Positions 1 to 17,058 of a stretch of DNA of 17,058 bases are shown piece after piece. Made by a program: the position numbers and the translations under genes. How positions within the stretch are numbered: the first letter of the stretch is position 1; the number at the start of each line of letters is the position of its first letter. This stretch comes from a virus (lineage: Duplodnaviria; Heunggongvirae; Uroviricota; Caudoviricetes). Below the pieces are notes generated by a model, which made no database searches, had not been told where the DNA came from, and worked only from the letters and a program-made list of their open reading frames with translations. The stretch is from the IMG/VR virus record IMGVR_UViG_2609460221_000007, positions 1 through 17,058 of that record; one strand, given 5' to 3'.

Positions 1-303
1 GATGGTAAGGCCTTTCCTCAGCCAGCAGGTGCTGCGTTACCAGTCCGGGAAGCCGCAACACAGGAAGAAATTAAAACAGAAACTGTGGCGGACATTGTGC
101 AGCCGTTGCCATCGTTTACCGAAACGCAAGCAGATGAGCTGATTTTTCCGTCCCTTCGCAGGGCAAACCTGGCGCTGCGCAGGGCGAAAAGTGATGTTCA
201 GAAGTGGGAGCGAGTCTGCGCCGCGCTGCGGGAGCTGAACAAGCACCGGGATATTGTTCGACAGATTAGTGATTCTTCCCGCCGTGTTGTATCGGAAAAG
301 TGA
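1..303 (+). CDS. 3' end of an upstream gene (5' end outside window); hypothetical protein
   Basis: Frame 1 is open from base 1 to TGA at 301-303, co-directional with the downstream operon, and the stop is followed directly by the RBS of the next gene. No recognisable motif. Confidence 0.4.
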   Translation, partial: DGKAFPQPAGAALPVREAATQEEIKTETVADIVQPLPSFTETQADELIFPSLRRANLALRRAKSDVQKWERVCAALRELNKHRDIVRQISDSSRRVVSEK

Positions 304-318
304 TTGCCGGAGGCGCTT

Positions 319-711
319 ATGGCAAAAGTATTTACACCAGAAGAGCGGGAAGAAGTGAAGGCGCGCATTGTGGAATTCGTGCGCCTGAGCGGACGAGAAA
401 CTTTTCGACAACTGGCAGATAAAACGGGTGTCAGTAAGACCGCTATTCGTCGTTTATCTGGTGCGCTTGCGGCCAGTGGTGATGTCTGGCTCTCTGGTTG
501 CGGGGTATTTCCATCAGAGCAGGCGTATCGCGTATGGCGTAAGACACCGGAGAAGGCTGCTGACCCGACACTGATTCGAAAGTTACCTGACGGAGAAATA
601 CGTCGTTACAACAGACGGCAGAACATAATTTGTCGTGAGTGCCGCCAGAGCGAAGTCATGCAGCGTGTGCTGGCGTTCTATCGGGGAAACTTTCAGGAGG
701 TGATGGAGTGA
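319..711 (+). CDS. hypothetical protein with possible helix-turn-helix (…FRQLADKTGVSKTAIRRL…)
   Basis: ATG at 319 preceded by GGAGG (309-313). The ORF track extends to a TTG at 304, which is less likely. Stop TGA 709-711 overlaps the next start. Confidence 0.55.
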   Translation: MAKVFTPEEREEVKARIVEFVRLSGRETFRQLADKTGVSKTAIRRLSGALAASGDVWLSGCGVFPSEQAYRVWRKTPEKAADPTLIRKLPDGEIRRYNRRQNIICRECRQSEVMQRVLAFYRGNFQEVME

Positions 712-1004
712 GGGTGAGAGTTTATATTGCCGGTCCAATGACGGGATATGAAAATTTCAACCGTGAGGCGTTTCACAAGGCGGAAGAGGAACTGAAACGG
801 GAAGGGCATACCGTCTTAAACCCGGCAGTACTTCCGGACGGGCTGACACAGCCGCACTACATGGATATTTGCATGGCAATGATTCGTTGTGTGGATGCGA
901 TTTACATGCTGAATGGCTGGCAGCGGTCAGCGGGCGCTAAGGCAGAGCTGGCACTGGCGGAGAAACTGGGGCATGCGGTGATTTATCAGGAGGTGGCTCA
1001 ATGA
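708..1004 (+). CDS. DUF4406-like protein (nucleoside 2-deoxyribosyltransferase-like fold)
   Basis: GTG start at 708, 7 nt after AGGAGG (695-700), overlapping the upstream stop. N-terminal 'VYIAGPMTG' motif followed by 'NPA' and a conserved acidic C-terminal half, as recalled for DUF4406/NDT-like proteins. Confidence 0.5.
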   Translation: MRVRVYIAGPMTGYENFNREAFHKAEEELKREGHTVLNPAVLPDGLTQPHYMDICMAMIRCVDAIYMLNGWQRSAGAKAELALAEKLGHAVIYQEVAQ

Positions 1005-1462
1005 GAGAGGTTAACTATGAGGCGCTTCGTGAGGCAGCACAAAACTATCAGTCGACGCTGGCGTGGTATCAGGCTATCCCGGACAGNCCAAATGCTGAAC
1101 GGGATTGTGATGCGGCTCTTGCTGCGTTTAAGCGTCACATCCGTCATCGGGAAGCGGATATTATCGCTGATTTGCTGGATGGACTGGAAGAAGCAAAATC
1201 ACAACTCAACGAGCAGCGTGAGTATTACGAAGGCGTTATCTCTGATGGGAGTAAGCGTATTGCTGAACTGGAAGCGCGGGAAGTTCAATTACCGACTCGC
1301 TACGACCTTCGATATGGACACCCGATAAATGCAGATGAGCGACATGTCATGATACCTAAAGAAAATGGCAGTTGGCTTTACCTGATTGACCTAGAACACG
1401 CATTACGCGTCGCTGGCATTCGCATCAAAGGAGAGGAGCATGGAAATAAAACCAGAGGATGA
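1001..1462 (+). CDS. hypothetical protein (153 aa)
   Basis: ATG 1001 overlaps the upstream stop (ATGA); RBS AGGAGGTGG at 987-996. One ambiguous codon (n at 1087). Confidence 0.6.
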   Translation: MREVNYEALREAAQNYQSTLAWYQAIPDXPNAERDCDAALAAFKRHIRHREADIIADLLDGLEEAKSQLNEQREYYEGVISDGSKRIAELEAREVQLPTRYDLRYGHPINADERHVMIPKENGSWLYLIDLEHALRVAGIRIKGEEHGNKTRG

Positions 1463-1796
1463 GTTAAGCAATATCGTTTTATTTCCGGTAAAAGAGGATG
1501 ACCCTCGTAATCAGGTTAATTTTCTTTATGAGTCATCGGAAAGACCATATTGTCATCACGCCTCTGTTCGGGTTGACGAAAAAGAGCGTCAGGTCCGCTG
1601 TAAAATCTGCGGTGCAGTTGTGGAGCCGTTTGACTGGATGCTCTCTGTGGCGAAAAGAGAAACCAGACTGGCAGATGATGTAAGGCTATTGCGCCAGGAG
1701 GAACAGGAAAGGCGGAAAAATATAGAAAAGTTAATTCAGATTGAGCGTAACGCGAAAGCGCGGATATGCAGGGCGACAAAATCCAGAACTGAATAA
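1440..1796 (+). CDS. hypothetical protein with putative zinc-ribbon (C-HH…C-x2-C)
   Basis: ATG 1440 with RBS AAGGAGAGGAG (1428-1438); overlaps the 3' end of the upstream ORF by 23 nt; Cys/His cluster YCHH…CKICG. Confidence 0.55.
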   Translation: MEIKPEDELSNIVLFPVKEDDPRNQVNFLYESSERPYCHHASVRVDEKERQVRCKICGAVVEPFDWMLSVAKRETRLADDVRLLRQEEQERRKNIEKLIQIERNAKARICRATKSRTE

Positions 1797-1891
1797 TTAA
1801 ATTTAGCACTGTTAAAAATTTTATCCTTAACCGGAGGGATTTCTGCACCCTCAGAACATCAGGAGGCCGCCCGAAAGGGCGGTAATGAAAA

Positions 1892-2299
1892 ATGACTGAA
1901 TTAACAAAAGAGCAATTAATCGAAGAAGCCAAATTAAAAATAGCGATTGCGAAATGCCACACGAATTCAGGGATGGCACGGGTAGAGGGTGAGTTATTCA
2001 AAATTGCACTGGCATCGCTAGAAGCGGAACCGATAGCGTGGAAATGCGGCGAAAACATAATCCTGTTTAATCCTGACACAGTTGAAGCATACGCAAAACG
2101 TGCGGAGATATCACCTAAACCACTATTCGCAGCTCCACCTGTGCCGGTTGTGTCTGAAGGACTGGTTAAAGCCGTGCGCTTCTATGAAAAGGTTAAGCGT
2201 GAAAATCCGCCAGTCGAAACCGGAGCATGGAAAGACGCTGTTGACTGGGTGCTCAAAGAGGCCTGCCAGGTTGTAAACACTGGCATCAAAGGAGACTGA
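1892..2299 (+). CDS. hypothetical protein (135 aa); shares an 'EP(I/V)A(W/Y)…AAPPVPVVSE' region with the 328-aa protein at 2663-3649
   Basis: ATG 1892. An AGGAGG (1861-1866) is separated from the start by a GC hairpin (1867-1882). Stop 2297-2299 lies 1 nt before the next ATG. Confidence 0.6.
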   Translation: MTELTKEQLIEEAKLKIAIAKCHTNSGMARVEGELFKIALASLEAEPIAWKCGENIILFNPDTVEAYAKRAEISPKPLFAAPPVPVVSEGLVKAVRFYEKVKRENPPVETGAWKDAVDWVLKEACQVVNTGIKGD

Positions 2300-2300
2300 T

Positions 2301-2666
2301 ATGGCACTGACGAAAAAACAACGTGCAGAATTGCGCATGAAGTTTGGCGGTCGCTGTGCTTATTGCGGCTGTGAACTTGGCGAAAAGTGGCATGCAGACC
2401 ATGTAAAACCGGTCATTCGTTTTAATGGAAATATGCTTCACCAGGAACGTGACGATATATCCAACATGGTTCCGGCATGCCACCCATGCAATCTGCACAA
2501 GCATTGCAGTAGCCTGGAAGACTATCGGCGAATTATCAGTGATGGTCGTCGTGAATTCCTTGCGTCCGGGAAAGGCAAAGCGCTGGTTCGTATGGGATTG
2601 GTTGAAATGAAATCTGACCCGGTTGTGTTCTGGTTTGAAAAATATCAAGAAGGGGCTACAGCATGA
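2301..2666 (+). CDS. HNH endonuclease
   Basis: Canonical HNH motif directly visible in translation: C-A-Y-C-G…H-A-D-H-V-K-P…N-M-V-P-A-C-H-P-C-N-L-H-K. RBS AAAGGAGA (2288-2295). Confidence 0.8.
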   Translation: MALTKKQRAELRMKFGGRCAYCGCELGEKWHADHVKPVIRFNGNMLHQERDDISNMVPACHPCNLHKHCSSLEDYRRIISDGRREFLASGKGKALVRMGLVEMKSDPVVFWFEKYQEGATA

Positions 2667-3649
2667 CCACTATTACCAATAAGAAACAGTATCCCAGCGA
2701 GCAATATCTTAATGAGCTTATCACCAACATAGAGTTTGCTGCAAGGGCACCAGTTGAAGTCGTGAGCGCAATGGCAGCAGAGCTACAGAAGCGGCGCGAA
2801 GCTGATAGCGCAGAACCAGTTGCTTATATTTTCAAACATCCGGCCGGGAAATTATTCTGGGCTTTAACGGATGAAAGCAATAAAGAGCAAGCGGACGTTA
2901 TTCCTGTTTATGCCGCCCCTCCAGTGCCAGTAGTATCTGAAGAAAAACCAATGCCTAACCCTCTTAAAATGTACGCGGTCGATGATGTTGCCGCTATTGC
3001 AGAGGTGAGAGGCTGGAATGCCTACCGCGCCGCCATGCTTCAGAGTCAGGGGGAAGGCAACCCTCATGTAACCCCGGCTCGCCTGCCTGGTGGTTTCACC
3101 ATTGAGGATGCGAAGGTGTTACATGAAGACCTTGTACGTAGCCACATAAGCCAGGCTTTAAGTGGCGAAAAGATGAAAAAGAAAGATCGCGATGCTGATT
3201 TGCGCTGGATTCATGGCGTAATAGTTCAGGCCGCGTGGTTTGTAAAGGCATCACTGGAGCAGAATGCACTATCGGGCAACTCTCCGGTAATTCCTGGTGA
3301 GGTGTTGTCCGCAATCCGGGAGGTTGCCAGGATTCGCGCCGATTTCGATGATTTTGACGGTGACAGGCGAGGTATCGGTGATTGTCTGGATGAGGCCGAG
3401 CAAGAGCTTATCGTTACCATTAACAAATATGCCAGTCAGTTGGCAGTAGAGCCGGTAGTACCTGATGACGTTCTGGAACAGACAGTAGCGTCGCCAGCGC
3501 TAGGTAACCAGGTTAGCGAATTAACAATGTGGGTTAAACGACTGGTCAGTCAACTGAAAAAAGCTCAGCCGGACTGCAAATTACCGGAGAAGGCGATGGA
3601 TTACCTGAAACGAAATGGACTGATAAGCGTGGAGGATGTTTTACGATGA
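2663..3649 (+). CDS. hypothetical protein (328 aa); N-terminal region paralogous to the 1892-2299 product
   Basis: ATG 2663 overlaps the HNH stop (ATGA-type coupling). Long ORF with phage-like codon usage; contains the 'YAAPPVPVVSE' motif. Confidence 0.65.
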   Translation: MTTITNKKQYPSEQYLNELITNIEFAARAPVEVVSAMAAELQKRREADSAEPVAYIFKHPAGKLFWALTDESNKEQADVIPVYAAPPVPVVSEEKPMPNPLKMYAVDDVAAIAEVRGWNAYRAAMLQSQGEGNPHVTPARLPGGFTIEDAKVLHEDLVRSHISQALSGEKMKKKDRDADLRWIHGVIVQAAWFVKASLEQNALSGNSPVIPGEVLSAIREVARIRADFDDFDGDRRGIGDCLDEAEQELIVTINKYASQLAVEPVVPDDVLEQTVASPALGNQVSELTMWVKRLVSQLKKAQPDCKLPEKAMDYLKRNGLISVEDVLR

Positions 3650-3769
3650 ATATTTAGACTAAAGAGTTTGTAACGCTATGTAAGTGATTTTTTCTGGTTT
3701 AGATATTTATATGTCCGGCCAAATTGAGGTGTGTTTAAATGTTATTGCACATTGATTGTAGGGGGAATA

Positions 3770-3949
3770 ATGAAAAACGCATTGCAGTTTTTGTTTGTTG
3801 CGTTCTGGTTGTTCGCATCATGTATGCCCATCATCTTCACAGCAAGGTATATGGAAAAAATTGATGTTTTGATATTAATGTTTGGACATATAAATGCCCT
3901 TTTTTTAGGGGTGTTCATGGCGGTCATGTGCATTGAATACTGGCGGTAA
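3770..3949 (+). CDS. possible small two-helix membrane protein (59 aa)
   Basis: ATG 3770 preceded by GGGGGA (3761-3766); strongly hydrophobic translation (…LQFLFVAFWLFASCMPIIF… / …NALFLGVFMAVMCIEYW); AT-rich. Could be spurious. Confidence 0.3.
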   Translation: MKNALQFLFVAFWLFASCMPIIFTARYMEKIDVLILMFGHINALFLGVFMAVMCIEYWR

Positions 3950-4004
3950 ATACAGCGAACGCCATTGGTTTAGTTGGATATTTACTGTGCCGGACAAAAA
4001 CGGT

Positions 4005-4032
4005 TTGCGGGGAAATCTTAGTTAAGTAGAAT
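4005..4032 (+). promoter_or_regulatory. candidate sigma70 promoter for the hok transcript (TTGCGG -35, 16-nt spacer, TAGAAT -10)
   Basis: Hexamers read directly at 4005-4010 and 4027-4032; position is appropriate for a long hok leader. Not verified. Confidence 0.25.
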
Positions 4033-4151
4033 AACTGCGGGTGCTTGAGGCTATCTGTCTCAGGCATGAACACCAAAAGGCAGATAGAGAAAAGCCCCAG
4101 TTAACATTACGCGTCCTGCAAGACGCTTAACATTAATCTGAGGCCATATCT

Positions 4152-4211
4152 ATGCGACACATAGAGATTAGCCTCTTACGGACCGAAAGGTCAAGGAGAA
4201 GCAGGCTATGA
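4152..4211 (+). CDS. mok-like leader ORF translationally coupled to hok
   Basis: ATG 4152; 19 codons; stop TGA 4209-4211 overlaps the hok ATG (4208-4210). This is the arrangement expected for hok/mok loci. Confidence 0.3.
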   Translation: MRHIEISLLRTERSRRSRL

Positions 4212-4333
4212 AGCAGCAAAAGGCGATGTTAATCGNCCTGATCGTCATCTGTTTAACCGTCATAGTGACGGCACTGGTAACGAGGAAAGACCTCTGCGAG
4301 GTACGAATCCGAACTGGCAGACGGAGGCTCTGA
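4208..4333 (+). CDS. hok: Hok/Gef-family type I toxin (HokD/RelF-like)
   Basis: RBS AGGAGA (4193-4198); translation MKQQKAMLI(x)LIVICLTVIVTALVTRKDLCEVRIRTG… matches the Hok/Gef transmembrane core as recalled. The C-terminal tail as written (…RRRL*) differs from recalled homologues and may reflect a 1-nt indel or sequence error. Confidence 0.75.
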   Translation: MKQQKAMLIXLIVICLTVIVTALVTRKDLCEVRIRTGRRRL

Positions 4334-4415
4334 TTCGTAGACTACTAATCTGAGTAAAAGACCCAGCGGGGAAAGAACCACGCCGGGACTAGTTAATAAG
4401 ATATTTATAGCGTGG

Positions 4416-4757
4416 CTATTCTTTTTTTGCGGTATAGACTTTTTCGCCTGAGAAGTCTGGAGCTACCCAAAAGTTAATATTAAACTGAGCATCATCGCTT
4501 AGTTCAACACGGTGCCAGTATTGTGGTGGGCTTGTTGCAAAAGCGCCAGCATTAATGACTACTTTTATCTCCGGTTCAGTAGCATTCTCATCAGCAAAAC
4601 CATAATATGTTACAGTACCTTCCATCACGCATAACTGTCCAAAAACACCTGCTGCTGTATTATGATGTGTTAATAACGCTGAAGGTACGTTCTCTTTTGT
4701 GAAGAACGGAGTTGAGCGTTTGATTACCCAGTCTTTAGGAATTCTCTTGTGTGTCAT
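4416..4757 (-). CDS. YeaR-like / DUF1971 family protein (TehB-associated cupin-like domain)
   Basis: Start ATG (MTHKR…) preceded on the minus strand by GGGAGGTG. Translation shows RSTPFF…VMEGTVTYYGFADENATEPE…FNINFWVAP, closely paralleling the recalled E. coli YeaR pattern. Convergent with hok. Confidence 0.6.
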   Translation of the reverse strand: MTHKRIPKDWVIKRSTPFFTKENVPSALLTHHNTAAGVFGQLCVMEGTVTYYGFADENATEPEIKVVINAGAFATSPPQYWHRVELSDDAQFNINFWVAPDFSGEKVYTAKKE

Positions 4758-5124
4758 AACCACCTCCCATAAAACATGCATTATAAATGCACCTTTTTGA
4801 GGGTTATGTCAAGCTGTTATGAAACACATAATTGATATGTTGATTAGAGGAGAAGATAGAATCAATATGGTTGTTTTTCGTATAACTATTTGTTTTACTT
4901 TTAGTTTGTGCATTCTGTGTGTTAGGAATAACTTATTAAAGTTTAACTAAAAAATCTCGATATAGTCCGCATAGATTACTGTTACTGAATCTTATTGTGT
5001 GCATTAGTTGTGTTCTGAAATTTCAATTTAATTACTTATGATATATTTTTAACGATAAATGTTTTCCGGGTGAAAGACAGTGGGGGATGAGATAAGCAAT
5101 ATATCATTAATCTTGATTATTTCC

Positions 5125-5186
5125 AGGATGCCTTTACTGTGCATATAAATAAATCATATACGCATCAAATAATGTAAAGGCATCCT
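5125..5186. repeat. perfect 13-bp inverted repeat (AGGATGCCTTTAC … GTAAAGGCATCCT) with 36-nt AT-rich spacer
   Basis: Arms at 5125-5137 and 5174-5186 are exact reverse complements, read directly; lies in an ORF-free AT-rich region. Confidence 0.6.
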
Positions 5187-5625
5187 TTTAGATATATCTT
5201 ATCAAATGTTAATGATTTGAGTGGGAAACATGATTCCAGAAACTAATCATGCGGCTACTTTATAAAAATAATGCCCATATAAAACAGCCAGCGAAAAGGA
5301 TTACGGATAAAAAAGGAGCGAGATGTGCATAGTTGTTATTTTCCATGTTTAACCACCTTAAATAATTGATGATGACGGGATGTGCATCTGTAATGCTTTT
5401 GTTGAAATGTTATGATNAAAAAAGAACTTTTTCATAACATTAAAATGTAATTTATCTAATCGTTTTTAATAATAAGTGTTGTATTTCTATCCTTGTATCA
5501 GCTATTTGATATGTAGTGTTTGTTCATGTTATGTGGAGCTTTACACCATAGCCAGTTTATTTATACTTTATTCGTCAGCCTGAACAACTGGCATCTGCTG
5601 CACTGCGCCATCGAGAGATTGAGAA

Positions 5626-6225
5626 ATGGCGCATATACAACTGGTCAAACAAACCTCTTCTGGACTACTTCTCCCGGCGACGCCGGAGAGTTGCGATTTT
5701 TTGCATCAAATCAAAATAGGCGAGTGGATACACGCAGACTTTAAGCGTGTGCGTAACTACGCATTCCACAAGCGTTTTTTCAAACTCCTGCAACTGGGAT
5801 TCGATTACTGGACTCCGGTCGGTGGGGCGATCACGCCTCGCGAACGAAAGCTGGTTTCAGGATTCGTTGATTACCTATGTGAATCAGTAGGCCGGGAACA
5901 TACGCCAGCTCTGAGCGAAGCCGCAGAGCAATATCTGAATACAGTTGCGACACGCAGAACCCGGGATACGGCATTGCTAAAGTCGTTTGAGGCTTTCCGC
6001 GAGTGGGTAACCATTCAGGCCGGATTTTACACCGAGCATCTTTATCCTGATGGTAGCCATGGGCGTCGGGCGAAATCCATCGCTTTTGCGAATATGGACG
6101 AAACCGAGTTTCAGCAGGTTTATAAATCTGTTCTGAATGTGCTGTGGAACTGGATTCTGTTCCGTAAATTTTCCTCTCCGGAACAAGTCGAAAATGTGAC
6201 CGCGCAGCTGCTGGAGTTTGCGTAA
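5626..6225 (+). CDS. lambdoid nin-region protein (possibly DUF1367 family)
   Basis: 199-aa ORF immediately upstream of and abutting the ybcO-like gene; GC content returns to the phage-core level. Family assignment is from memory of the gene order in lambdoid prophages. Confidence 0.55.
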   Translation: MAHIQLVKQTSSGLLLPATPESCDFLHQIKIGEWIHADFKRVRNYAFHKRFFKLLQLGFDYWTPVGGAITPRERKLVSGFVDYLCESVGREHTPALSEAAEQYLNTVATRRTRDTALLKSFEAFREWVTIQAGFYTEHLYPDGSHGRRAKSIAFANMDETEFQQVYKSVLNVLWNWILFRKFSSPEQVENVTAQLLEFA

Positions 6226-6515
6226 TGGTGGATTTACGTAAAGCGGCGCGGGGGCAGATGTGCACCGTCAGAATTCCTGGCTACTGCAATCACGATCCGG
6301 AAACGTCTGTGCTGGCGCATTACCGACTGGCGGGAACGTGCGGAACAGCGACAAAACCACACGATATGCAGGCGGCGATTGCCTGTAGCTCATGCCACGA
6401 TCTAATCGACGGGCGGGTAAAAACCAGCGATTACACCAAAGAAGAATTACGCCTGATGCATGCAGAAGGTGTTTTTCGCACACAAGAAATCTGGAGAAAG
6501 GAGGGATATTTGTGA
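6225..6515 (+). CDS. YbcO-like (DUF1364) Cys-rich nin-region protein, putative nuclease
   Basis: 96 aa; Cys cluster (C-x…CNHDPETSVLAHYRL…C…CSSCHDLID) resembles the YbcO family as recalled; stop overlaps the Q start (GTGA). Confidence 0.6.
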   Translation: MVDLRKAARGQMCTVRIPGYCNHDPETSVLAHYRLAGTCGTATKPHDMQAAIACSSCHDLIDGRVKTSDYTKEELRLMHAEGVFRTQEIWRKEGYL

Positions 6516-7054
6516 TTTACCCAACGAATACAGGAAAAAGCGGAGAACACCTTCGTCTCGCCACGCTGGAAAGTGTCTGGATTCAGGGCAAACTGCGTAT
6601 GTGGGGGCGCTGGTCGTATATTGGCGGTGGCAGGTCAGGAAATATGTTCAATCAGTTGTTGGCATCCAAAAAATTGACGAAAACAGCCATCAATGAAGCC
6701 CTGCGCAGAATGAAAAAAGCGGGAATAGAGAAAGCTGAGCTGGAAGCGTTTTTGCGAGAGATGATCAACGGCAAGCAAAAGAGCTGGCTGGCGCATTGTA
6801 CTGATGCAGAGGCGTTATGTATTGATCGAGTCATAAGTGAGGTGCTGGCAGAGCATCCTGGATTGATTAGTGTCCTCCGGCAACGGTATGAAGGACGGGG
6901 GATGACTAAGCGCAAAATGGCTGAATTGCTAAATGATGCACATCCTGAGTGGTGTTTTAGCACATGCGAAAAGCGAATTGCTAATTGGTTGGCTGTTGCT
7001 GAGTATGCCCTATATATTCCCATGCGAGAATCATTTGCTCAAAAAATAGCTTGA
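6512..7054 (+). CDS. late-gene antiterminator Q-like protein
   Basis: GTG start 6512 preceded by GGAGGG; position immediately upstream of a promoter/terminator region and the lysis cassette; basic, Cys-containing protein. The call is mainly positional. Confidence 0.55.
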   Translation: MIYPTNTGKSGEHLRLATLESVWIQGKLRMWGRWSYIGGGRSGNMFNQLLASKKLTKTAINEALRRMKKAGIEKAELEAFLREMINGKQKSWLAHCTDAEALCIDRVISEVLAEHPGLISVLRQRYEGRGMTKRKMAELLNDAHPEWCFSTCEKRIANWLAVAEYALYIPMRESFAQKIA

Positions 7055-7138
7055 TTTTTTACGCATAAACTGCTTCAATTCCGGTATGCTTCGCAAAGCT
7101 GTATCGCGAGGCGAACCAAGCGCATGAACTTTACCAGA

Positions 7139-7166
7139 ACCCGCCATTGAGCGGGTTTTGTTGTTT
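7139..7166 (+). terminator. tR'-like intrinsic terminator downstream of Q
   Basis: Stem AACCCGC/GCGGGTT with 6-nt loop (cattga), followed by TTTTGTTGTTT, about 85 nt after the Q stop. This is the arrangement expected for the pR'/tR' late regulatory region. Confidence 0.55.
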
Positions 7167-7275
7167 CTGGTACTGGTGAACCTGATGTTTCATTTCTGGA
7201 GCGCGATTCCTGGCGGAATACCTAGAATCGAGACATTCTGGTAAAATTGTTTTCAGTACAGGATGTGGAGGTGAG

Positions 7276-7845
7276 ATGAGAGAACTACCTAAAGATTATT
7301 TTTTAGGAGTAGATGATGAGCTCGTCGATTATCTTGAAAAACAAGGGGAAGAGACGATACGAGAGATTCATCTTTCTAACAAAACCAATGTTGAGAATGG
7401 ATACAAACTTCTGAACATTCAGATTGTTGGAATTGGTTCATCTTTTTTATTGCTGACACAGAAAACTAATTTCGATTTTCTCACCGCCGGAATTACCACA
7501 TTTACATTACTATGGACATGGTGCGCCATTTACTTGGTATGTACTGGTTTATCTGTGAAGGTTAGGGGCCTGATCAATGCCCCTCCTGATCATCTATATC
7601 ATGAAAAATATAAGGATATGGAGCCCTCGAGCTTTAAAATATTCGCTGATGCAGGATATTTAGGACCTGATAAGTTATTGCCGCTTATACGAAGGTATCG
7701 CCTTGTTGACTTGAGTGATACAGCAAGAGAGTTACTGTTGGAAAATGAGAAAATCCGCACGAGTCTCGATAAAGCAAGGATGTATACCATCCTTGCTCCG
7801 GTAGCGGCGATGTTTATCTCGGCTGTTTTTTTATATGTTCAATGA
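7276..7845 (+). CDS. uncharacterised 189-aa membrane protein (three predicted TM helices); cargo gene in the Q-S position
   Basis: ATG 7276 with GGAGG upstream; AT-rich relative to flanking phage genes; hydrophobic segments IVGIGSSFLLL, AGITTFTLLWTWCAIYLVCTGL and C-terminal ILAPVAAMFISAVFLYV. No recognisable family. Confidence 0.6.
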   Translation: MRELPKDYFLGVDDELVDYLEKQGEETIREIHLSNKTNVENGYKLLNIQIVGIGSSFLLLTQKTNFDFLTAGITTFTLLWTWCAIYLVCTGLSVKVRGLINAPPDHLYHEKYKDMEPSSFKIFADAGYLGPDKLLPLIRRYRLVDLSDTARELLLENEKIRTSLDKARMYTILAPVAAMFISAVFLYVQ

Positions 7846-8068
7846 CTGAGTCGGCAGAATCTCCAACAAAAACACGACGTGTAGCAAAGTCTGTAGTACT
7901 TTGTGTTGGAGTTGGTTTTGGTGCCACGGGTTGCTGAGGTTTATTTTCACCTTGTGGTTTGTTTTTTCAGANCATAAAAATCCTCTTTGTTTGAATTGTT
8001 ACTTTTGGCGATTTAACGATATCAAACACGAGTATATACCGCCAGAAGCTTAATCTGGCACTCCATCT

Positions 8069-8094
8069 GGCCCCGGCATGTCCCGGGGCTTTTT
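8069..8094 (+). terminator. intrinsic terminator between the cargo gene and the holin
   Basis: GC stem GCCCCGG/CCGGGGC with 6-nt loop followed by TTTTT (8090-8094); read directly. Confidence 0.65.
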
Positions 8095-8192
8095 CGTTGT
8101 TAGGCTCTGGAAACATCCTCGACTTCTTGTTAGCAAGCCTGAGAGCCTGAATCTTACACTTAGCACCATCCGAACTCTCGGAGGTGAGGCTT

Positions 8193-8534
8193 ATGAAAAT
8201 GCACAATGCCCCTCATTCCTGGCCTGACTTACTGGAACTCTTACAAAGTTGGTGGCGTGGAGATACGCCGCTGGGTGCAGTGGTTATGTCAATTATTATG
8301 GCTGGTTTGCGCATTGCCTATTTTGGCGGTGGCGGCGGCTGGAAACGAAAAACGCTTGAGATTCTGCTTTGTGGTGCTCTGACGCTGACCTTTGCATCCG
8401 CGCTTGAGTATGTCGGATGGCCTAAATCACTTTCTGTTGCCATTGGTGGTGGGGTGGGGCTGATTGGTGTTGATGCTATTCGTGGTGCGGCAATGAGGGT
8501 CATCGGTAACAAGTTCGGTGCCCATAAGGAGTAA
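8193..8534 (+). CDS. S: holin, lambda S family, with Met-Lys-Met dual-start motif
   Basis: GGAGG (8180-8184) then ATG-AAA-ATG (8193/8199); translation has the three hydrophobic segments and charged C-terminus of lambda S; directly upstream of the R endolysin. Confidence 0.85.
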   Translation: MKMHNAPHSWPDLLELLQSWWRGDTPLGAVVMSIIMAGLRIAYFGGGGGWKRKTLEILLCGALTLTFASALEYVGWPKSLSVAIGGGVGLIGVDAIRGAAMRVIGNKFGAHKE

Positions 8535-8537
8535 TTA

Positions 8538-9014
8538 ATGCAGACACTTAATTCCCAGCGTAAAGCTTTCCTTGATATGGTGGCATGGTCAGAAGGAACA
8601 GATAACGGACGGCAGAAAACCAGAAATCACGGTTATGATGTTATTGTCGGTGGCGAACTGTTCACTGATTACTCCGATCACCCCCGCAAACTTGTCACGC
8701 TAAATCCGAAACTCAAATCAACAGCCGCTGGACGTTACCAGCTTCTTTCACGCTGGTGGGATGCCTACCGCAAGCAACTTGGCCTGAAAGATTTTTCTCC
8801 AGAAAGTCAGGATGCTGTAGCGCTGCAGCAGATTAAAGAGCGTGGCGCTTTGCCGATGATTGATCGCGGTGATATCCGTCAGACTATCGACCGTTGCAGC
8901 AATATATGGGCTTCACTGCCGGGCGCTGGTTATGGTCAGTTCGAGCATAAGGCTGACAGTCTGATTGCAAAATTCAAAGAAGCTGGCGGAACGGTCAGAG
9001 AGATTGAGGTATGA
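8538..9014 (+). CDS. R: endolysin, lambda R-type lytic transglycosylase
   Basis: Translation (…[47 protein letters not shown]…) is near-identical to lambda R as recalled; RBS AAGGAG. Confidence 0.9.
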
Positions 9015-9484
9015 GCAGAGTAACCGCGATTATCTCCGCTCTGGTTATCTGCATCGTCGTCTGCCTGTCATGGGGTGTTAATCATTACCGTGATAACGCC
9101 ATCGCCTACAAAGAACAGCGCGACAAAAATGCCAGAGAACTGAAGCTGGCGAACGCGGCAATTACTGACATGCAGATGCGTCAGCGTGATGTTGCTGCGC
9201 TCGATGCAAAATACACGAAGGAGTTAGCTGATGCGAAAGCTGAAAATGATGCTCTGCGTGATGATGTTGCCGCTGGTCGTCGTCGGTTGCACATCAAAGC
9301 AGTCTGTCAGTCAGTGCGTGAAGCCACCACCGCCTCCGGCGTGGATAATGCAGCCTCCCCCCGACTGGCAGACACCGCTGAACGGGATTATTTCACCCTC
9401 CGGGAACGACTGGTAATGATGCAGGCCCAACTTGAAGGTGCTCAGCAATACATAACCGAGCAGTGTTTNAAAGTAAAATCTTAA
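9011..9484 (+). CDS. Rz: i-spanin Rz
   Basis: N-terminal TM segment then coiled-coil periplasmic domain, near-identical to lambda Rz as recalled; an ambiguous base at 9468 makes the exact stop uncertain. Confidence 0.85.
9231..9416 (+). CDS. Rz1: o-spanin Rz1 lipoprotein, embedded in the +1 frame of Rz
   Basis: Lipobox LVVVGC followed by a proline-rich segment ([15 protein letters not shown]), near-identical to lambda Rz1 as recalled; lies entirely inside Rz. Confidence 0.85.
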
Positions 9485-9613
9485 CTACAATATGATTCAT
9501 TTTGATGATTGTTTCATAAGGAACAGTGAAGTAAGATCTAAGAGGAGTTAAATTTTATACAGTATAATCATAATATTGCAGCAAGGTGGTTATAATTGAA
9601 AGAATATTTAGAT

Positions 9614-11074
9614 ATGAATACATCTCATGTAAGAGTTGTTACTCATATGTGTGGGTTCCTGGTTTGGCTCTATAGTCTTTCAATGTTGCCACCAATGGTT
9701 GTAGCATTGTTTTATAAAGNAAAAAAGCCTGTTCGTTTTCTTTATAACTTTCGTTATATTTTTTTGCATTGGTGGCGGAGCGTGGTATACAACTAAGAAA
9801 TCTGGCATTCAATTACGTANCCGTGATGGGTTTATTATAATTGTAATGTTTTGGATTTTGTTTTCTGTTATTAGTGCATTCCCTTTATGGATTGACTCAG
9901 AACTTAATTTAACGTTCATTGATGCTCTGTTTGAAGGGGTTTCTGGAATAACAACAACAGGAGCAACTGTAATTGATGATGTTAGTTCATTACCTCGGGC
10001 ATATTTGTACTATCGGTCACAGTTAAATTTTATAGGTGGTTTAGGAGTTATTGTTCTGGCGGTTGCTGTATTGCCATTATTGGGTATTGGTGGTGCAAAG
10101 CTTTATCAGTCAGAAATGCCGGGGCCATTTAAGGATGACAAACTCACTCCCCGCCTGGCCGATACGTCACGGACACTGTGGATAACTTATTCTTTATTAG
10201 GTATTGCTTGTATTGTCTGTTATAGACTTGCAGGAATGCCTTTGTTTGATGCTATTTGTCACGGGATTTCCACAGTTTCGCTTGGTGGTTTCTCAACTCA
10301 TAGCGAGAGTATCGGATATTTTAATAACTATTTGGTTGAGCTGGTGGCTGGTTCTTTTTCCCTGCTATCGGCTTTCAACTTCACTCTTTGGTATATTGTT
10401 ATTAGCAGGAAAACGATAAAACCTTTAATCAGAGATATTGAACTTCGTTTCTTTCTGTTAATAGCCTTAGGGGTGATCATTGTTACCTCTTTCCAGGTCT
10501 GGCATATAGGTATGTATGACTTGCATGGAAGTTTTATTCATTCGTTTTTTCTTGCCAGCTCCATGCTCACTGATAATGGTTTAGCTACGCAGGATTATGC
10601 AAGTTGGCCCACGCACACGATAGTGTTTTTGCTGTTGTCAAGTTTCTTTGGGGGATGTATAGGTTCAACTTGTGGTGGAATTAAGTCACTTCGATTTCTT
10701 ATACTTTTCAAACAAAGCAAACACGAGATAAATCAGCTTTCTCATCCCAGAGCGTTGTTGAGTGTAAATGTAGGAGGGAAGATAGTTACAGATCGTGTAA
10801 TGAGGTCTGTATGGAGTTTCNTTTTTTCTTTATACTCTCTTCACGGTGTTTTTTATACTGGTGTTAAATGGTATGGGATATGATTTTCTTACATCATTTG
10901 CAACAGTGGCTGCATGTATTAATAATATGGGATTAGGTTTTGGGGCTACTGCATCGTCATTCGGAGTGCTTAATGACATTGCAAAATGTTTAATGTGCAT
11001 AGCTATGATTCTTGGTCGCCTTGAAATTTATCCTGTTATTATATTGTTTTCAGGNTTTTTTTTGGCGCTCCTAA
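9614..11074 (+). CDS. trkG: potassium uptake protein TrkG (Trk system membrane component); reading frame interrupted only at ambiguous bases
   Basis: Three consecutive ORF fragments (frames shift at n 9720, n 10821, n 11055, each in a homopolymer run) together translate to a TrkH/TrkG-type polytopic transporter starting MNTSHVRVV… and ending …FFWRS* when the frame is corrected. AT-rich. Known cargo of Rac-type prophages. Confidence 0.8.
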
Positions 11075-11160
11075 TATATGGCTGATTTATAATTGTGAGT
11101 TTAATATTATGTTGACTCACTCATTGATCCAATACCTAACTTTACCAGCAACACCTCCGT

Positions 11161-11195
11161 CCCCAGTAGCACTGGCTGCTGGGGTGCGTTTTATT
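11161..11195 (+). terminator. putative terminator after trkG
   Basis: 10-bp stem CCCCAGTAGC/GCTGCTGGGG (one G-U) with ACTG loop, followed by TGCGTTTTATT; the U-tract is offset by 4 nt, so strength is uncertain. Confidence 0.4.
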
Positions 11196-11211
11196 CATAA
11201 AGCAAGGCTGT

Positions 11212-12003
11212 ATGAGCGAGAAATTAAAGATAGTCTATCGCCCATTACAAGAATTGTCACCGTATGCGCACAACGCCAGGACGCACAGTACTGAGCAGGT
11301 GGCACAACTGGTAGAAAGTATTAAGCAATTCGGCTGGACTAATCCGGTGCTGATTGACGAAAAGGGCGAAATTATTGCGGGTCACGGTCGTGTTATGGCG
11401 GCTGAAATGCTCAAAATGGATTCTGTTCCGGTCATTGTTCTGTCTGGCCTGACGGATGAGCAGAAAAAGGCGTACCGCCTGGCAGATAATCGCCTGCCGA
11501 TGAATGCTGGCTGGGATGAAGATCTGTTGCGGATGGAGCTGTCGGACCTAATCAATGCTGATTTTGATGTCTCCCTGACAGGCTTCATCCCGACAGAAAT
11601 TGATGAACTGTTGACGGATGTTTTGCCCGGTACAGGAAATGAGGAGGAGCCGTATACGACGAAAATTGATACGCCTGTTTATGAGCCGTCGGGCGGTAAA
11701 CCGGATATCAGTGAACTGTACGACGATACGAAAACTCAGGAGCTGATCAGCCGGATACGTTCGGCGTCCCTTGAGCCTGATATTGAGAAATTCCTCCTGT
11801 GTGCGGCAGAACGTCACACGGTGTTTAATTTCAGCAGAATTGCGGACTATTACGCTCACGCCCCCTCTGAAATTCAGTGTTTTTTCGAGGAGTCGGCGCT
11901 GGTGATCATTGATTATCAGCAGGCTATTGAAAATGGATTTGTCCGGATGACGCAGCGCATGGTGGAGATCATGCATGGTGGTGAGGAGGAGGAATATGCG
12001 TGA
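11212..12003 (+). CDS. ParB-like nuclease domain (ParB/Srx N-terminal domain) protein
   Basis: N-terminal region with the characteristic …PVLIDEKGEIIAGHGRVMAA… ParB-N motif; acidic C-terminus; stop overlaps the next start. Confidence 0.75.
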   Translation: MSEKLKIVYRPLQELSPYAHNARTHSTEQVAQLVESIKQFGWTNPVLIDEKGEIIAGHGRVMAAEMLKMDSVPVIVLSGLTDEQKKAYRLADNRLPMNAGWDEDLLRMELSDLINADFDVSLTGFIPTEIDELLTDVLPGTGNEEEPYTTKIDTPVYEPSGGKPDISELYDDTKTQELISRIRSASLEPDIEKFLLCAAERHTVFNFSRIADYYAHAPSEIQCFFEESALVIIDYQQAIENGFVRMTQRMVEIMHGGEEEEYA

Positions 12004-12928
12004 TGATTTTTGCGCCTTTATTCTGACTCACGGGCGACCGGACAAAGTTCTGACTTACCGGACGTTGCGTCGTGCTGGCTATACCGGGAAAATTTTTATC
12101 GTTGTTGATGATGAAGATAAGACACGGCATCAGTACATGGCTGAATTTGGGGAACAGGTGCTGGTGTTTTCCAAAGCCGATATCGCCAGTCGTTTTGACG
12201 AAGCCGATAATTTCTGTGACCGCCGCTCAATTTTTTACGCCCGTAATGCCTGTTTCGACCTGGCAAAACTGGTCGGGTGTAAATACTTCATTCAGCTCGA
12301 TGATGATTATCACGAGTTCCAGTTTCGGGTGGATCGCAACTATGACCAGGCCTATTTTCCGATAAGGAAACTGGATGCGATCCTTTCTGAAATGCTGGCG
12401 TACTACGAATCAATACCTGCTCTTTCCATCGCTATGTCGCAGGGCGGGGATTTTCTTGGTGACAATGGCGGCCATGCTTCGTGGGTGAAACGCAAGGCAA
12501 TGAACAGCTTTATCTGTTCGGTTGAACGACCGTTCTCATTCATGGGGCGCATTAACGAGGATGTGAATACGTACACGAATCTCGGTCGCTGTGGTGAATT
12601 GTTTATGACGATCGGTGCTGTCCAGTTAGGGCAGAAACAGACGCAGAAAAACAGCGGCGGAATGACCGAGCTGTATCTGGATTCCGGAACCTACGTTAAA
12701 AGTTTTTACTCCGTCATGTATGCGCCGTCGTGCGTAAAAATCTCACTGATGGGTGCCAGCCATAAACGCATTCACCATCAGGTCACCTGGAACAACGCTG
12801 CAGTAAAAATCCTTCACGAAAAATACAGGAAGAAGACACCCTGCATATCAATGGGGGTGACAAATGATTCCGTATTCGAAAGTCGAGTCTCTGGCAGCGT
12901 GCCGGATGACTGCACAACAAATCGCTGA
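11996..12928 (+). CDS. GT-A-fold glycosyltransferase-like protein (nucleotide-sugar transferase-like, DxD motif)
   Basis: ATG 11996 preceded by GGAGGAGG, overlapping the ParB-like stop (ATGCGTGA). Translation shows AFILTHGRP…IFIVVDDED…FIQLDDDY, the beta-strand/DxD pattern of GT-A enzymes; no TM segments. Function inferred from motif only. Confidence 0.55.
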   Translation: MRDDFCAFILTHGRPDKVLTYRTLRRAGYTGKIFIVVDDEDKTRHQYMAEFGEQVLVFSKADIASRFDEADNFCDRRSIFYARNACFDLAKLVGCKYFIQLDDDYHEFQFRVDRNYDQAYFPIRKLDAILSEMLAYYESIPALSIAMSQGGDFLGDNGGHASWVKRKAMNSFICSVERPFSFMGRINEDVNTYTNLGRCGELFMTIGAVQLGQKQTQKNSGGMTELYLDSGTYVKSFYSVMYAPSCVKISLMGASHKRIHHQVTWNNAAVKILHEKYRKKTPCISMGVTNDSVFESRVSGSVPDDCTTNR

Positions 12929-13115
12929 CGTTCTGGATGTTGATCTGAACCGACTGAAAGAAAATCGGGAAGCAATGACAGATTTTTATGCGGCCATCCG
13001 TAAGGGCAGAGCGAAAGGTGAAGCCGAGTTACGAGCGGCATTGTTTAAGCTTGCCAGAAAAGGGGATGCCTTTGCTCTGCGCGAACTACTCAGGGTGGAT
13101 AAAAATCAGGACTAA
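12864..13115 (+). CDS. small hypothetical protein, possible HTH (…MTAQQIADVLDVD…)
   Basis: ATG 12864 preceded by GGGGGTG; overlaps the 3' end of the upstream gene by 65 nt (an alternative start ATG at 12906 would reduce this); stop abuts the TerS start. Confidence 0.45.
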   Translation: MIPYSKVESLAACRMTAQQIADVLDVDLNRLKENREAMTDFYAAIRKGRAKGEAELRAALFKLARKGDAFALRELLRVDKNQD

Positions 13116-13118
13116 CTG

Positions 13119-14213
13119 ATGAGCAGACCGGACTGGGGGGCGTTGCAGCAGGAGTATATTGCTGAATACACCCGCTCCGGTATATCTCCGGTGGCATGGT
13201 GTGAAGCAAGGGGACTGAATTACGCAACAGCCCGTCGTTACATCAAAAAAACTCCGAAAAATGCGCAGACAGAAATGTGCAAAACTGCGCAAAAAAGTGC
13301 GCAGAAAAAATCTGCGCAGACTGCACAAAAGCGGAACGAAAAATCTCAGGAAAAAAAGCCAGTATTCGATGCGGGCCTGAATGAGGGCGACGCGGAGGAA
13401 TTTTCGTTCTGTCCCGATGAATTCGGCATTTCTGACCAGCAGGCTAAGTTTGCGATGCTTGTTGCTCAGGGTAAAAAGCCGACAGAGGCGTACCGACTAG
13501 CCGGTTATGAGGGGCAAGGTGCGACAGCTAATAGCAACGCCAGTCGTATGCTTAGAAATGCCAGGGTTTTTCGCGCTATCAGCTACTTCCGCAATCAGTA
13601 CCAGAAACGCTATACCGCAGACCTGGATTTACTAGTGAGTCAGTTGATGGCCATTGTCCTGGCCGACCCCAATCAGCTTGCACAATTTCGCCGTGTTAAC
13701 TGCCGTTATTGCTGGGGCGAGAATCATCTCTACCAGTGGCGCGATATAGCAGAATTCGACAAGGCAGCGGCGCAGGCTTCCAGAGATGGCAAACCCGAAC
13801 CGGAATATGGANGCCTCGGCTTTGTTGATAACGCCATACCCAATCCGGACTGCCCGAAGTGCTGCGGTGAGGGAACGGGACAGCTTTATATGGCTGATAC
13901 CACTCTGCTTGATGGGGATGCGCGGCAATTATATGCAGGGGCAAAATTCGGAAAATTCGGCGTTGAGATCCTGCTGGAGGATAAGGCTGCCGCCCGGCGT
14001 GAATTGTTGCGTTTGCTTTCTGCTGGCGGGGCTTTATGTGCAGATAAGCGGCTACAGGAACTGGAAATTGAACGGCGCAGAATGGAAAACCAGAAGCTGC
14101 GCAAAGAGATCGAAACGGTGGAAGATAATGAACATCCCCAGCCTGTGGCGATCAATATTAATGTGGTTGATGCCAGAGTAAGGAGTGATGAAGATGATCT
14201 CTCCGACGCTTAA
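13119..14213 (+). CDS. terminase small subunit (Terminase_2-like core with N-terminal HTH and C-terminal CxxC…CxxC zinc-ribbon/coiled coil)
   Basis: Core …AKFAMLVAQGKKPTEAYRLAGYEGQGATANSNASRMLRNARVFRAISYF… is typical of phage TerS; immediately upstream of the large terminase; one ambiguous codon (n 13811). Confidence 0.7.
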   Translation: MSRPDWGALQQEYIAEYTRSGISPVAWCEARGLNYATARRYIKKTPKNAQTEMCKTAQKSAQKKSAQTAQKRNEKSQEKKPVFDAGLNEGDAEEFSFCPDEFGISDQQAKFAMLVAQGKKPTEAYRLAGYEGQGATANSNASRMLRNARVFRAISYFRNQYQKRYTADLDLLVSQLMAIVLADPNQLAQFRRVNCRYCWGENHLYQWRDIAEFDKAAAQASRDGKPEPEYGXLGFVDNAIPNPDCPKCCGEGTGQLYMADTTLLDGDARQLYAGAKFGKFGVEILLEDKAAARRELLRLLSAGGALCADKRLQELEIERRRMENQKLRKEIETVEDNEHPQPVAININVVDARVRSDEDDLSDA

Positions 14214-15495: not shown

Positions 15496-15497
15496 TT

Positions 15498-17058
<1,561 letters not shown>

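Follow-up and report, generated by a model that had tools for sequence, protein, structure and literature searches.

The early accessory regions of lambdoid phages encode small mosaic proteins, of which EaA of phage P22, gp36 of phage HK022 and the 'Eaa protein' of Salmonella and Escherichia coli are closest to the two genes analysed here, sharing with them N-terminal helices of the MTTIT.. type, an ..IALASLEAEP.. segment, a variable cassette and a PLYAAPPVP.. segment. PV(V/I/T)P connectors before the later modules are a further likeness, as is, in HK022 gp36 and the Eaa proteins, a GWNACRAAML anchor. P22 EaA reads ARIALASLDAET...PLYAAPPVPE, followed by a DUF550-like region (by resemblance to protein P0338), QPESVVPEE and NSPVIPGGWISCSERMP (DUF551), and HK022 gp36, in which ...LEADPVAY leads into a cassette that we call b, reads MTTFTDKELIKE...IALASLEADPVAY-IFKHPAGKLFWALTDESNKEQADVIP-VYAAPPVPVVPE-EKTMPNPLSMYAVDAVAAIAEVR-GWNACRAAMLKGDKS. 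Here, we analyse a stretch of 17,058 nucleotides (nt) of a Caudoviricetes virus (IMG/VR record IMGVR_UViG_2609460221_000007, positions 1 to 17,058; hereafter the window), which derives from the early region of an E. coli lambdoid prophage. Two of its open reading frames (ORFs), ORF1 of 135 and ORF3 of 328 amino acids, are separated by an HNH endonuclease gene and contain the identical peptide AAPPVPVVSE (Table 1), which is one of a class of connectors punctuating module boundaries.

An earlier note on this DNA, made from the letters alone, had reported that the peptide is common to both ORFs, that an EP(I/V)A(W/Y) element precedes it in each, and that the underlying DNA differs. All of this proved accurate: both copies are present at the positions given in Table 1, the preceding elements are AEPIAW in ORF1 (residues 45–50) and AEPVAY in ORF3 (residues 50–55), and the DNA strings that it quoted are correct, differing in seven of ten codons, each at the third position and each synonymously. 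BLASTP aligned the two proteins with 21 identities over 49 residues (E = 4e-5, single comparison), a common 10-mer never arose in 20,000 shuffles that preserved the composition of the two protein sequences, and the back-translated degenerate pattern GCNGCNCCNCCNGTNCCNGTNGTNNCNGAR matched twice in the window against 0.00 matches expected. The pair is also not a recent DNA repeat, in agreement with the note, as a DNA repeat search of the window did not report it and the longest exact nucleotide word common to both module regions is 9 nt long and out of register. Among the 21 identical aligned residues, 14 are encoded by different codons, and third-position identity (7/21) is at about saturation. 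In IMG/VR prophages, the degenerate pattern occurs at 96 sites in 93 loci, every one of them in frame and set in the context of this family; the identical peptide has at least 11 DNA spellings there, and additional spellings accompany a cassette of type c. Because the 10-mer shows no replacement despite saturated synonymous change, selection on the protein is required; the peptide is kept by purifying selection at that level, as the note had suggested, within the most conserved island of the family.

Proteins of this family follow a fixed plan of slot 1, anchor 1, slot 2, anchor 2, slot 3 and anchor 3, after which they either stop or continue into more modules. Slot 1 consists of N-terminal helices that exist in several versions, often beginning MTTIT or MTELT, and is followed by anchor 1 with the consensus (R/K/E)IALASLEAEP(V/I)A(W/Y); in our alignment A1, the columns I38, A39, S42, L43, E44, A45, P47, A49 and W50 are near-invariant. 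Slot 2 is a swappable cassette of 24–45 residues with at least 23 types, closed by anchor 2, (P)(L/V/I)(Y/F)AAPP(V/A)PVV(P/S)E, of which AAPPVPVVSE is the core. Slot 3 is a variable, mostly helical module (EKPMPNPLKMYAVDDVAAIAEVR in ORF3), and anchor 3, consensus GWNACRAAML, is the last element of the approximately 117-residue 'Eaa' proteins; in ORF1, slot 3 plus anchor 3 reads GLVKAVRFYEKVKRENPPVETGAWKDAVDWVLKEAC... Later modules, often DUF551, are optional, each standing after a similar PV(V/T/I)P(D/E/G) connector.

Anchors 1, 2 and 3 as well as family-profile matches are present in both ORF1 and ORF3, which are members of the mosaic P22 EaA-type ('Eaa') early accessory family of enterobacterial lambdoid phages. 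ORF1 matched the profiles phrog_660 (9.5e-51) and phrog_5117 (2.7e-28), ORF3 matched phrog_6847 (2.3e-55), phrog_660 (2.3e-29) and phrog_5117 (3.6e-9), and phrog_60 was matched by both alike. Scans of Pfam (E ≤ 0.1) and NCBIfam returned no family for either ORF, which also lack matches to Ead_Ea22 (PF13935) and, at E ≤ 0.1, to DUF551 (PF04448); a PADLOC scan likewise gave no family for the two, with generic HNH similarity for the middle gene only, and a sequence search of the PDB gave nothing at E ≤ 1. We collected 1,645 homologues of ORF1, many of which carry DUF551, Ead_Ea22 or another tail as a fusion, and over 7,900 of ORF3, most of both sets being labelled hypothetical, 'Eaa protein' or 'DUF551 domain-containing'. 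Among 1.84 billion proteins, profile A4, built from 26 whole small family members and informative mainly at the anchors, matched 5,370 cluster representatives (50% identity) at E ≤ 1e-3 and 1,603 at the stricter E ≤ 1e-10. The smaller profile A3, covering an anchor plus a cassette, matched 279 'Eaa' or 'DUF551' proteins from Escherichia, Salmonella, Citrobacter, Enterobacter and Klebsiella. As a separate observation, anchor 3 (GWNACRAAML / WVLKEAC) holds an invariant Trp and an invariant Cys (W119 and C125 of ORF1) across the 26 diverse members of A4; for short cytoplasmic phage proteins, so conserved a Cys may indicate a functional site.

Anchor 2 is conserved far beyond its surroundings. In 168 non-redundant family segments with anchor 2 at their centre, positions -2 to +10 (PLYAAPPVPVVPE) carry 2.5–4.2 bits each, compared to 1–2 bits in the flanks, with Pro at +4, the second of the pair, in 98% and Pro at +3 in 89%. 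The anchor is essentially unchanged across the top 143 mutually diverged representatives, whose slot 2 sequences form at least 23 unrelated groups. Related connectors recur further along the proteins: the pattern [PSAE][VLIAS][VTIA][PS][DEGN] was found 291 times in 120 ORF3 relatives versus 41 times in shuffles, with two to four copies in most of these proteins and three in ORF3 itself. The copies sit at module boundaries (APPVPVVPEEKPM, SGNSPVIPGEVLS, LAVEPVVPDDVLE / LAAEPIAPNDVRE and NSPVTPDGWISC); SGNSPVIPGEVLS is the junction in relatives that matches the second connector of ORF3, LAVEPVVPDDVLE or LAAEPIAPNDVRE matches the third, and NSPVTPDGWISC, of the NSPVTPDGW type, stands immediately before DUF551 in almost all of 93 cases.

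Between these fixed points, the modules are shuffled extensively. Among 317 proteins, we counted 54 combinations of slots 1 and 2 and 80 of slots 2 and 3, together with 121 and 42 four-gamete quartets, respectively, whose sole source is repeated recombination between the slots. At the DNA level, homology between alleles breaks at the anchors, and cassettes are exchanged there. Compared to locus L096, which encodes a protein with another cassette (P0054), the window is 94% identical up to nt 2032, at codon P47 of the AEP anchor; the cassette is then unalignable, having been replaced wholesale, and 87% identity resumes from nt 2135, at codon P82 within AAPPVPVV. Compared to a 187-residue allele without the HNH gene (P0018, in loci L099 and L101), homology extends over 1890–2266, ends at the C of WVLKEAC and resumes at nt 3504, the start of the ORF3 tail module, such that 1,237 nt of the window (2267–3503), covering the HNH gene together with the last part of ORF1 and 280 ORF3 codons, face 43 nt (3376–3418) in L099/L101. 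P0018 consists of an ORF1-type body, a 14-residue junction segment and the ORF3 tail module. Since the 280 ORF3 codons within this difference have a family history of their own, it represents module replacement and not a simple insertion, and we rejected the idea that ORF1 and ORF3 are one gene split by insertion of the HNH gene. In IMG/VR, the spelling of the motif follows in part the upstream cassette and in part the downstream module, and some spellings are chimeric. Hybrid connectors also occur (AAPPVPVTPDGWISC in P0300, AASPVSVTPDGWISC in P0090 and P0348), which reveal crossovers between non-allelic connectors.

Cassette b is also encoded, at 74–76% identity, by virulent phi92-like myoviruses (Justusliebigvirus, 145 kb), for example by Escherichia phage vB_Eco_PATM (locus L102, 1384–1665) in a Phi92_gp206-like protein of 93 amino acids that has a different N-terminus and no proline connector. 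The phi92-like gp206 reads ...EEPIAY-IFKHPAGKLFWALTDESNKDHHDVIP-VYAKNN.. and ends soon after the cassette, with neither a Pro-Pro connector nor a downstream module. As gp206 retains the borders of cassette b without the connector and the module beyond it, this suggests that EP.A(Y/W)...P(V/L)(Y/F) belongs to a small cassette domain and that AAPPVPVVPE is the link to whatever follows. Cassette b itself looks like an independent unit traded between temperate and virulent phages, for which we count its phi92-like occurrence as evidence.

The earlier note had proposed an old duplication or a shared domain for the two ORFs. The sharing holds, in that the anchors are common to the whole family; a local duplication does not fit, as the interior cassettes differ in type. 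The stretch between the two anchors has 7 identities in 26–27 residues, a short and weak similarity, and the likeness of ORF1 and ORF3 is essentially limited to AEP.A(W/Y) and (L/V)(Y/F)AAPPVPVVSE. Loci carrying both ORF types number three of 93 in IMG/VR; HK022 has the ORF3 type only, and L096 and L099 have the ORF1 type only. Because each type is mostly found without the other and their similarity is confined to the anchors, the pair is more aptly regarded as two family members, each assembled independently, than as the product of a local duplication.

Structure prediction places the connectors in coil, at low confidence. The AlphaFold2 (AF2) model of ORF1 has a predicted local distance difference test score (pLDDT) of 69 and contains helices at residues 6–22, 27–44, 89–104 and 111–131, with low confidence (pLDDT 44–60) across residues 45–88; the motif is predicted as coil that leads straight into helix 89–104. 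For ORF3, the model obtained from a mosaic alignment (mean pLDDT 42) is unusable as a structure; at this low confidence, it shows strands at 54–58, 64–66 and 79–82, inside cassette b and flanking anchor residues, coil at 83–107, 204–211 and 261–279, and helices at 108–127, 212–229 and 280–301. All four connectors of the two ORFs lie in predicted coil (pLDDT about 40–60 there), and three of them run directly into a helix, anchor 2 of ORF3 (coil 83–107) lying ahead of helix 108–127. Foldseek searches with the ORF1 model found no significant match in the PDB (best E = 1.3) or in BFVD, where the best hit, at 7.5e-3, was an uncharacterised Enterobacter phage protein with a root-mean-square deviation of 14 Å; a resemblance to Aqs1, a helical hairpin over 44 columns, was dismissed as trivial.

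We regard it as probable, if only just, that the connector is a structurally constrained hinge between modules and doubles as a joint at which crossovers stay in frame. The proline- and valine-rich connector ends the small variable cassette begun at ...LEAEP(V/I)A(W/Y) and leads into the next helical module; it would form an extended, polyproline-like segment that closes in a P-(D/E) helix cap. Such a hinge would insulate adjacent modules, allowing each to fold on its own, and crossovers within it would yield in-frame, functional recombinants. The connector would mark mosaic joints because it is both conserved and placed between modules, so that recombinants formed there should stay in frame and functional. 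In keeping with a linker, it stands between modules that recombine freely, and cassette b exists alone in the phi92-like gp206. As for what is being assembled, analogy with Ea22 and YfdS, which come from the same genome regions, suggests that EaA-type proteins probably act on host physiology or on the choice between lysis and lysogeny, specificity residing in the variable cassettes.

Several points weigh against this interpretation. The confidence of AF2 is low precisely in the region of interest, so 'coil' may stand for no more than a segment that is not predictable. Sequence conservation is normally poor in passive linkers, and the near-invariance of the AAPP core therefore suggests a more specific constraint than that on a spacer, such as packing, a partner or translation. 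Breakpoints in conserved segments are to be expected in any mosaic family, since homology permits crossover, and their coincidence with the connector is alone no proof that it was selected for recombination. The protein sets were collected by homology to the queries, which inflates apparent conservation, and proteins of this N-terminal type are known from sequences and models.

These points bring other explanations into play. One in which the AAPP core is constrained by binding is that (L/V)(Y/F)AAPPVPVVPE is a docking peptide for one common host or phage partner, to which cassettes and tails bring varied activities; we consider this possible but rather unlikely. The conservation is far above that of usual linkers, both in the second Pro and over all 13 positions, and anchor 2 is kept whichever of at least 23 cassette types precedes it and whichever of 43 downstream groups follows. 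Moreover, the segment is not confidently folded by AF2, as would be the case for a motif that folds on binding, and Ea22-type neighbours are viewed as acting through not-yet-named host partners (PMC10834534). However, the weaker connector copies at every module boundary, two to four per protein, fit punctuation better than docking, hybrid or shortened forms are tolerated (AASPVSVTPD; AAPPVPE in P22 EaA), and the phi92-like relative has lost the motif and the downstream modules together. A constraint from translation would arise if A-P-P were a stall dependent on elongation factor P (EF-P) that gives the upstream cassette time to fold ahead of the next module. In the absence of EF-P, E. coli ribosomes stall at XPPX motifs, APP among them, and APP is kept in most members, with the two prolines at the frequencies given above, and is placed exactly at the module boundary. 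Nevertheless, the connectors NSPVIPGE, VEPVVPDD and NSPVTPDGW have no Pro-Pro, and the conserved stretch reaches well past the PP pair; we give this candidate explanation little chance, although such a pause could coexist with the other readings.

It is about equally improbable, in our judgement, that the constraint lies in the DNA, with the anchors persisting as substrates for homologous recombination or gene conversion among co-resident prophages and the constancy of the peptide as a by-product. Breakpoints do fall inside anchors, chimeric motif spellings are common to different upstream cassettes, and another junction in the window, ..ATCAAAGGAGA (1417–1434 and 2278–2295), is truly conserved as DNA. 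Yet the two window copies, with seven of ten codons different and no common word above 9 nt, cannot homogenise each other, the identical peptide has its many spellings, more of them with cassette c, and saturated synonymous change with zero replacements demands selection on the protein. A hidden Chi site in the connector DNA, conceivable as PPA can be spelled CCACCAGC, was rejected, as none of the motif spellings contains one. Finally, the earlier note had held that similarity confined to the proline-rich stretch would indicate a chance low-complexity match. To the letter, only two short anchors do align, the motif has a high content of P, V and A, and similarity does not reach significance in the interior between the anchors; but the anchors are hallmarks of a huge mosaic family, which excludes a low-complexity coincidence. 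With no shuffle containing a common 10-mer, no pattern match expected in the window and 96 of 96 IMG/VR sites in frame in the same family context, chance is refuted, its probability being close to nil.

Going beyond the hinge and crossover joint that we favour, the anchors and PV(V/T/I)P(D/E/G) connectors might together constitute an evolved 'plug-and-socket' grammar and not a set of tolerated joints, in which the connector peptides are held invariant while synonymous sites drift to saturation, so that any crossover within a connector gives an in-frame, foldable chimera; we offer this as a speculation that is more likely to be wrong than right by a wide measure. If true, lambdoid phages of Enterobacteriaceae would gain a combinatorial library of small early proteins, with dozens of cassettes per slot and thousands of combinations, whose variable cassettes would target fast-evolving factors of the host or of rival phages. 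This would be a protein-level analogue of exon shuffling within an arms-race gene family.

The HNH gene between the two ORFs is not a regular partner of the motif, an idea that we rejected after finding it adjacent in only seven of the 93 IMG/VR loci. The Shiga toxin (Stx)-type phage ArgO145 has the same HNH gene (97% identity) behind a different upstream gene, encoding a DUF4014 protein of 72 amino acids, and the 114-residue gene downstream of it ends in the ORF3 tail module. From these comparisons, the HNH gene appears to be an occasional indel around which ORF1 and ORF3 became joined here, and it may be a mobile (homing) cassette. It resembles the free-standing HNH cassettes of phages in being a small gene inserted as an indel between family genes and absent from the P0018-type allele; it is not needed to explain the motif.

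The end of ORF1 carries a different kind of junction. Direct repeat D2 (1417–1434 versus 2278–2295) is identical at 16 of 18 nt, and this near-identical repeat, CAYTSGCATCAAAGGAGA, encodes the C-termini ..IRIKGEE.. of the Ead/Ea22-like ORF and ..GIKGD of ORF1. Within it, AAAGGAG serves the gene that follows (ATG 1440 and ATG 2301) as its Shine-Dalgarno sequence. A common K/R-G-E C-terminal tripeptide of Ea22 proteins is reported, in the available part of the publication, without a role (PMC7093339). As the repeat that encodes it contains the Shine-Dalgarno sequence of the next gene, a simple explanation would be that the tripeptide is a translational-coupling signal read as codons.

The segment 1400–3900 of the window is 100% identical to many E. 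coli chromosomes, for example that of strain 7/2, in which it is flanked by replication genes (DnaT-like, P) on one side and by hokD, RusA and Q on the other. The gene neighbourhood runs DUF1627, DUF977, DUF4406, an ead/Ea22-like gene, a Zn-ribbon protein, ORF1, the HNH gene and ORF3, the stop of the HNH gene overlapping the start of ORF3 (ATGA). The ead/Ea22-like ORF (1001–1462), two genes before ORF1, matches Ead_Ea22 (PF13935) at 7.2e-12, and an identical 328-residue ORF3 protein is recorded as P0121. We observed that RefSeq/PGAP begins ORF3 at an internal Met (MLQSQ..., nt 3035) within the anchor GWNAYRAAMLQ (3011–3043), dropping 124 N-terminal codons (2663–3034), motif included. The N-terminal 97 residues give the phrog_6847 match and resemble HK022 gp36, and ATG 2663 overlaps the HNH stop; for these reasons, the RefSeq start is probably a start-site misannotation, spread over many E. 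coli genomes.

Elsewhere in the window, ORF3 is followed by a complete hok/sok type I toxin-antitoxin locus (Table 1). From translations alone, a TrkG-like potassium-uptake gene (9596–11085) seems to be split into several ORFs, some with ambiguous bases (X), and a portal-like ORF (15498–16466) loses its frame near a minus-strand ORF (16348–17052) resembling an IS3-family transposase. The window contains 10 N bases.

Table 1 Coordinates of the features discussed (aa, amino acids; residue numbers refer to the respective protein)
Feature	Position (nt)	Strand	Residues or length	Sequence	Details
ORF1	1892..2299	+	135 aa		Small EaA-N-type protein; helical hairpin, anchor 1, cassette 'a', anchor 2, C-terminal helical hairpin; ORF list, phrog_660
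Anchor 1, ORF1	2003..2041	+	38-50	IALASLEAEPIAW	
Cassette 'a', slot 2, ORF1	2042..2122	+		KCGENIILFNPDTVEAYAKRAEISPKP	AF2 pLDDT 44-52
Anchor 2, ORF1	2123..2158	+	78-89	LFAAPPVPVVSE	
AAPPVPVVSE, ORF1 copy	2129-2158	+	80-89	GCAGCTCCACCTGTGCCGGTTGTGTCTGAA	DNA sequence given
Anchor-3 equivalent, ORF1	2246..2266	+	119-125	WVLKEAC	Aligned with GWNACRAAML
Gene-end junction	2278..2295	+		CACTGGCATCAAAGGAGA	Encodes ..GIKGD; repeats 1417-1434 at the DNA level
HNH endonuclease gene	2301..2666	+	121 aa		Between ORF1 and ORF3; PF01844 1.8e-7, phrog_2118 1e-56
ORF3	2663..3649	+	328 aa		Extended EaA-N-type protein; helices, anchor 1, cassette 'b', anchor 2, slot 3, anchor 3, three more modules split by PV(V/I)P connectors; ORF list, phrog_6847/phrog_14306/phrog_660 on successive parts
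Anchor 1, ORF3	2807..2827	+	49-55	SAEPVAY	This part of the anchor only; after predicted helices 12-28 and 31-47
Cassette 'b', slot 2, ORF3	2828..2905	+		IFKHPAGKLFWALTDESNKEQADVIP	Also in HK022 gp36 and phi92-like phages
Anchor 2, ORF3	2906..2941	+	82-93	VYAAPPVPVVSE	
AAPPVPVVSE, ORF3 copy (first connector)	2912-2941	+	84-93	GCCGCCCCTCCAGTGCCAGTAGTATCTGAA	DNA sequence given
Anchor 3, ORF3	3011..3043	+	117-127	GWNAYRAAMLQ	
Second connector, ORF3	3278..3301	+	206-213	NSPVIPGE	
Third connector, ORF3	3446..3469	+	262-269	VEPVVPDD	
C-terminal tail module, ORF3	3503..3646	+		GNQVSELTMWVKRLVSQLKK...LISVEDVLR	Matches phrog_660 positions 146-193
sok RNA	4039-4210				Rfam RF01794, 106.7 bits
HokD-like ORF	4208-4333				One ambiguous base inside

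Set against its closest relatives, the locus differs in position and in the later modules. The EaA-type genes here lie in a nin-like region, from replication gene P to hokD, whereas those of the P22/HK022 type lie between exo and xis. ORF3 shares cassette b and slot 3 with HK022 gp36 at 90% identity (residues 50–127); however, P22 EaA runs on into DUF550 and DUF551, HK022 has the DUF551 part as a separate gene, gp35, ORF1 has a helical tail of its own ending in IKGD, and ORF3 has three other modules and no DUF551. A literature search on the N-terminal plan or mosaicism of EaA in P22 returned a gene table only, and a full-text search for the motif (APPVPVV) returned no papers.

The Ea22 proteins of lambda and Stx phages (Ead_Ea22, PF13935) are comparable mosaic early proteins, with a conserved helical N-terminus, exchanged C-terminal domains, among them DUF551 as a portable domain, and the K/R-G-E C-terminus, according to the available excerpts of two publications (PMC10834534, PMC7093339). 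These excerpts also report pro-lysogenic effects and the structure of the C-terminal domain of lambda Ea22, and describe mosaic blocks, with no AAPPVPVVPE connector or three-anchor plan in the portions available (PMC7093339, PMC10834534). A natural fusion of an Ead_Ea22 N-terminus with an ORF1 body exists (P0039), but Ea22 differs in forming a long coiled coil and tetramers. DUF551 proteins, such as YfdS of the cryptic prophage CPS-53, are linked to the family in that DUF551 forms the C-terminal end of 83 among the 121 sequences aligned with ORF3, in every case behind a connector of the NSPVTPDGW type. YfdS is linked to tolerance of H2O2 and oxidative stress and, with YfdQR, to inhibited replication initiation (PMC4776307). 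In contrast to these proteins, neither window ORF has DUF551, and the YfdS phenotypes concern the DUF551 part and not the motif.

Thousands of prophage proteins labelled 'hypothetical', 'Eaa' or 'DUF551' can be divided into modules with the three-anchor and connector grammar, which should improve annotation, for example of the RefSeq ORF3 start inside anchor 3. The 24–45-residue cassettes become units for functional tests in a family found throughout the prophages of E. coli, Shigella and Salmonella, Stx phages among them, and the family offers a clean natural data set on the way in which conserved linkers direct recombination in mosaic phages. The practical benefit of all this is modest.

The Pro/Ala/Val-rich segments of the OmpA hinge, TonB and the lipoyl-domain linkers of pyruvate dehydrogenase E2 are extended or unstructured and lie between independently folding units. 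The connector resembles these hinges in composition, in its predicted extended or unstructured state and in its position between units. Linkers of the OmpA, TonB and E2 type vary in length and sequence among homologues, whereas the 13-residue sequence described here is nearly fixed across thousands of diverged EaA-type proteins. The mosaic EaA-type family and phage mosaicism were already known, and the two ORFs are additional members of it and no new kind of system; what the analysis adds is the anchor and connector grammar of the EaA-type family.

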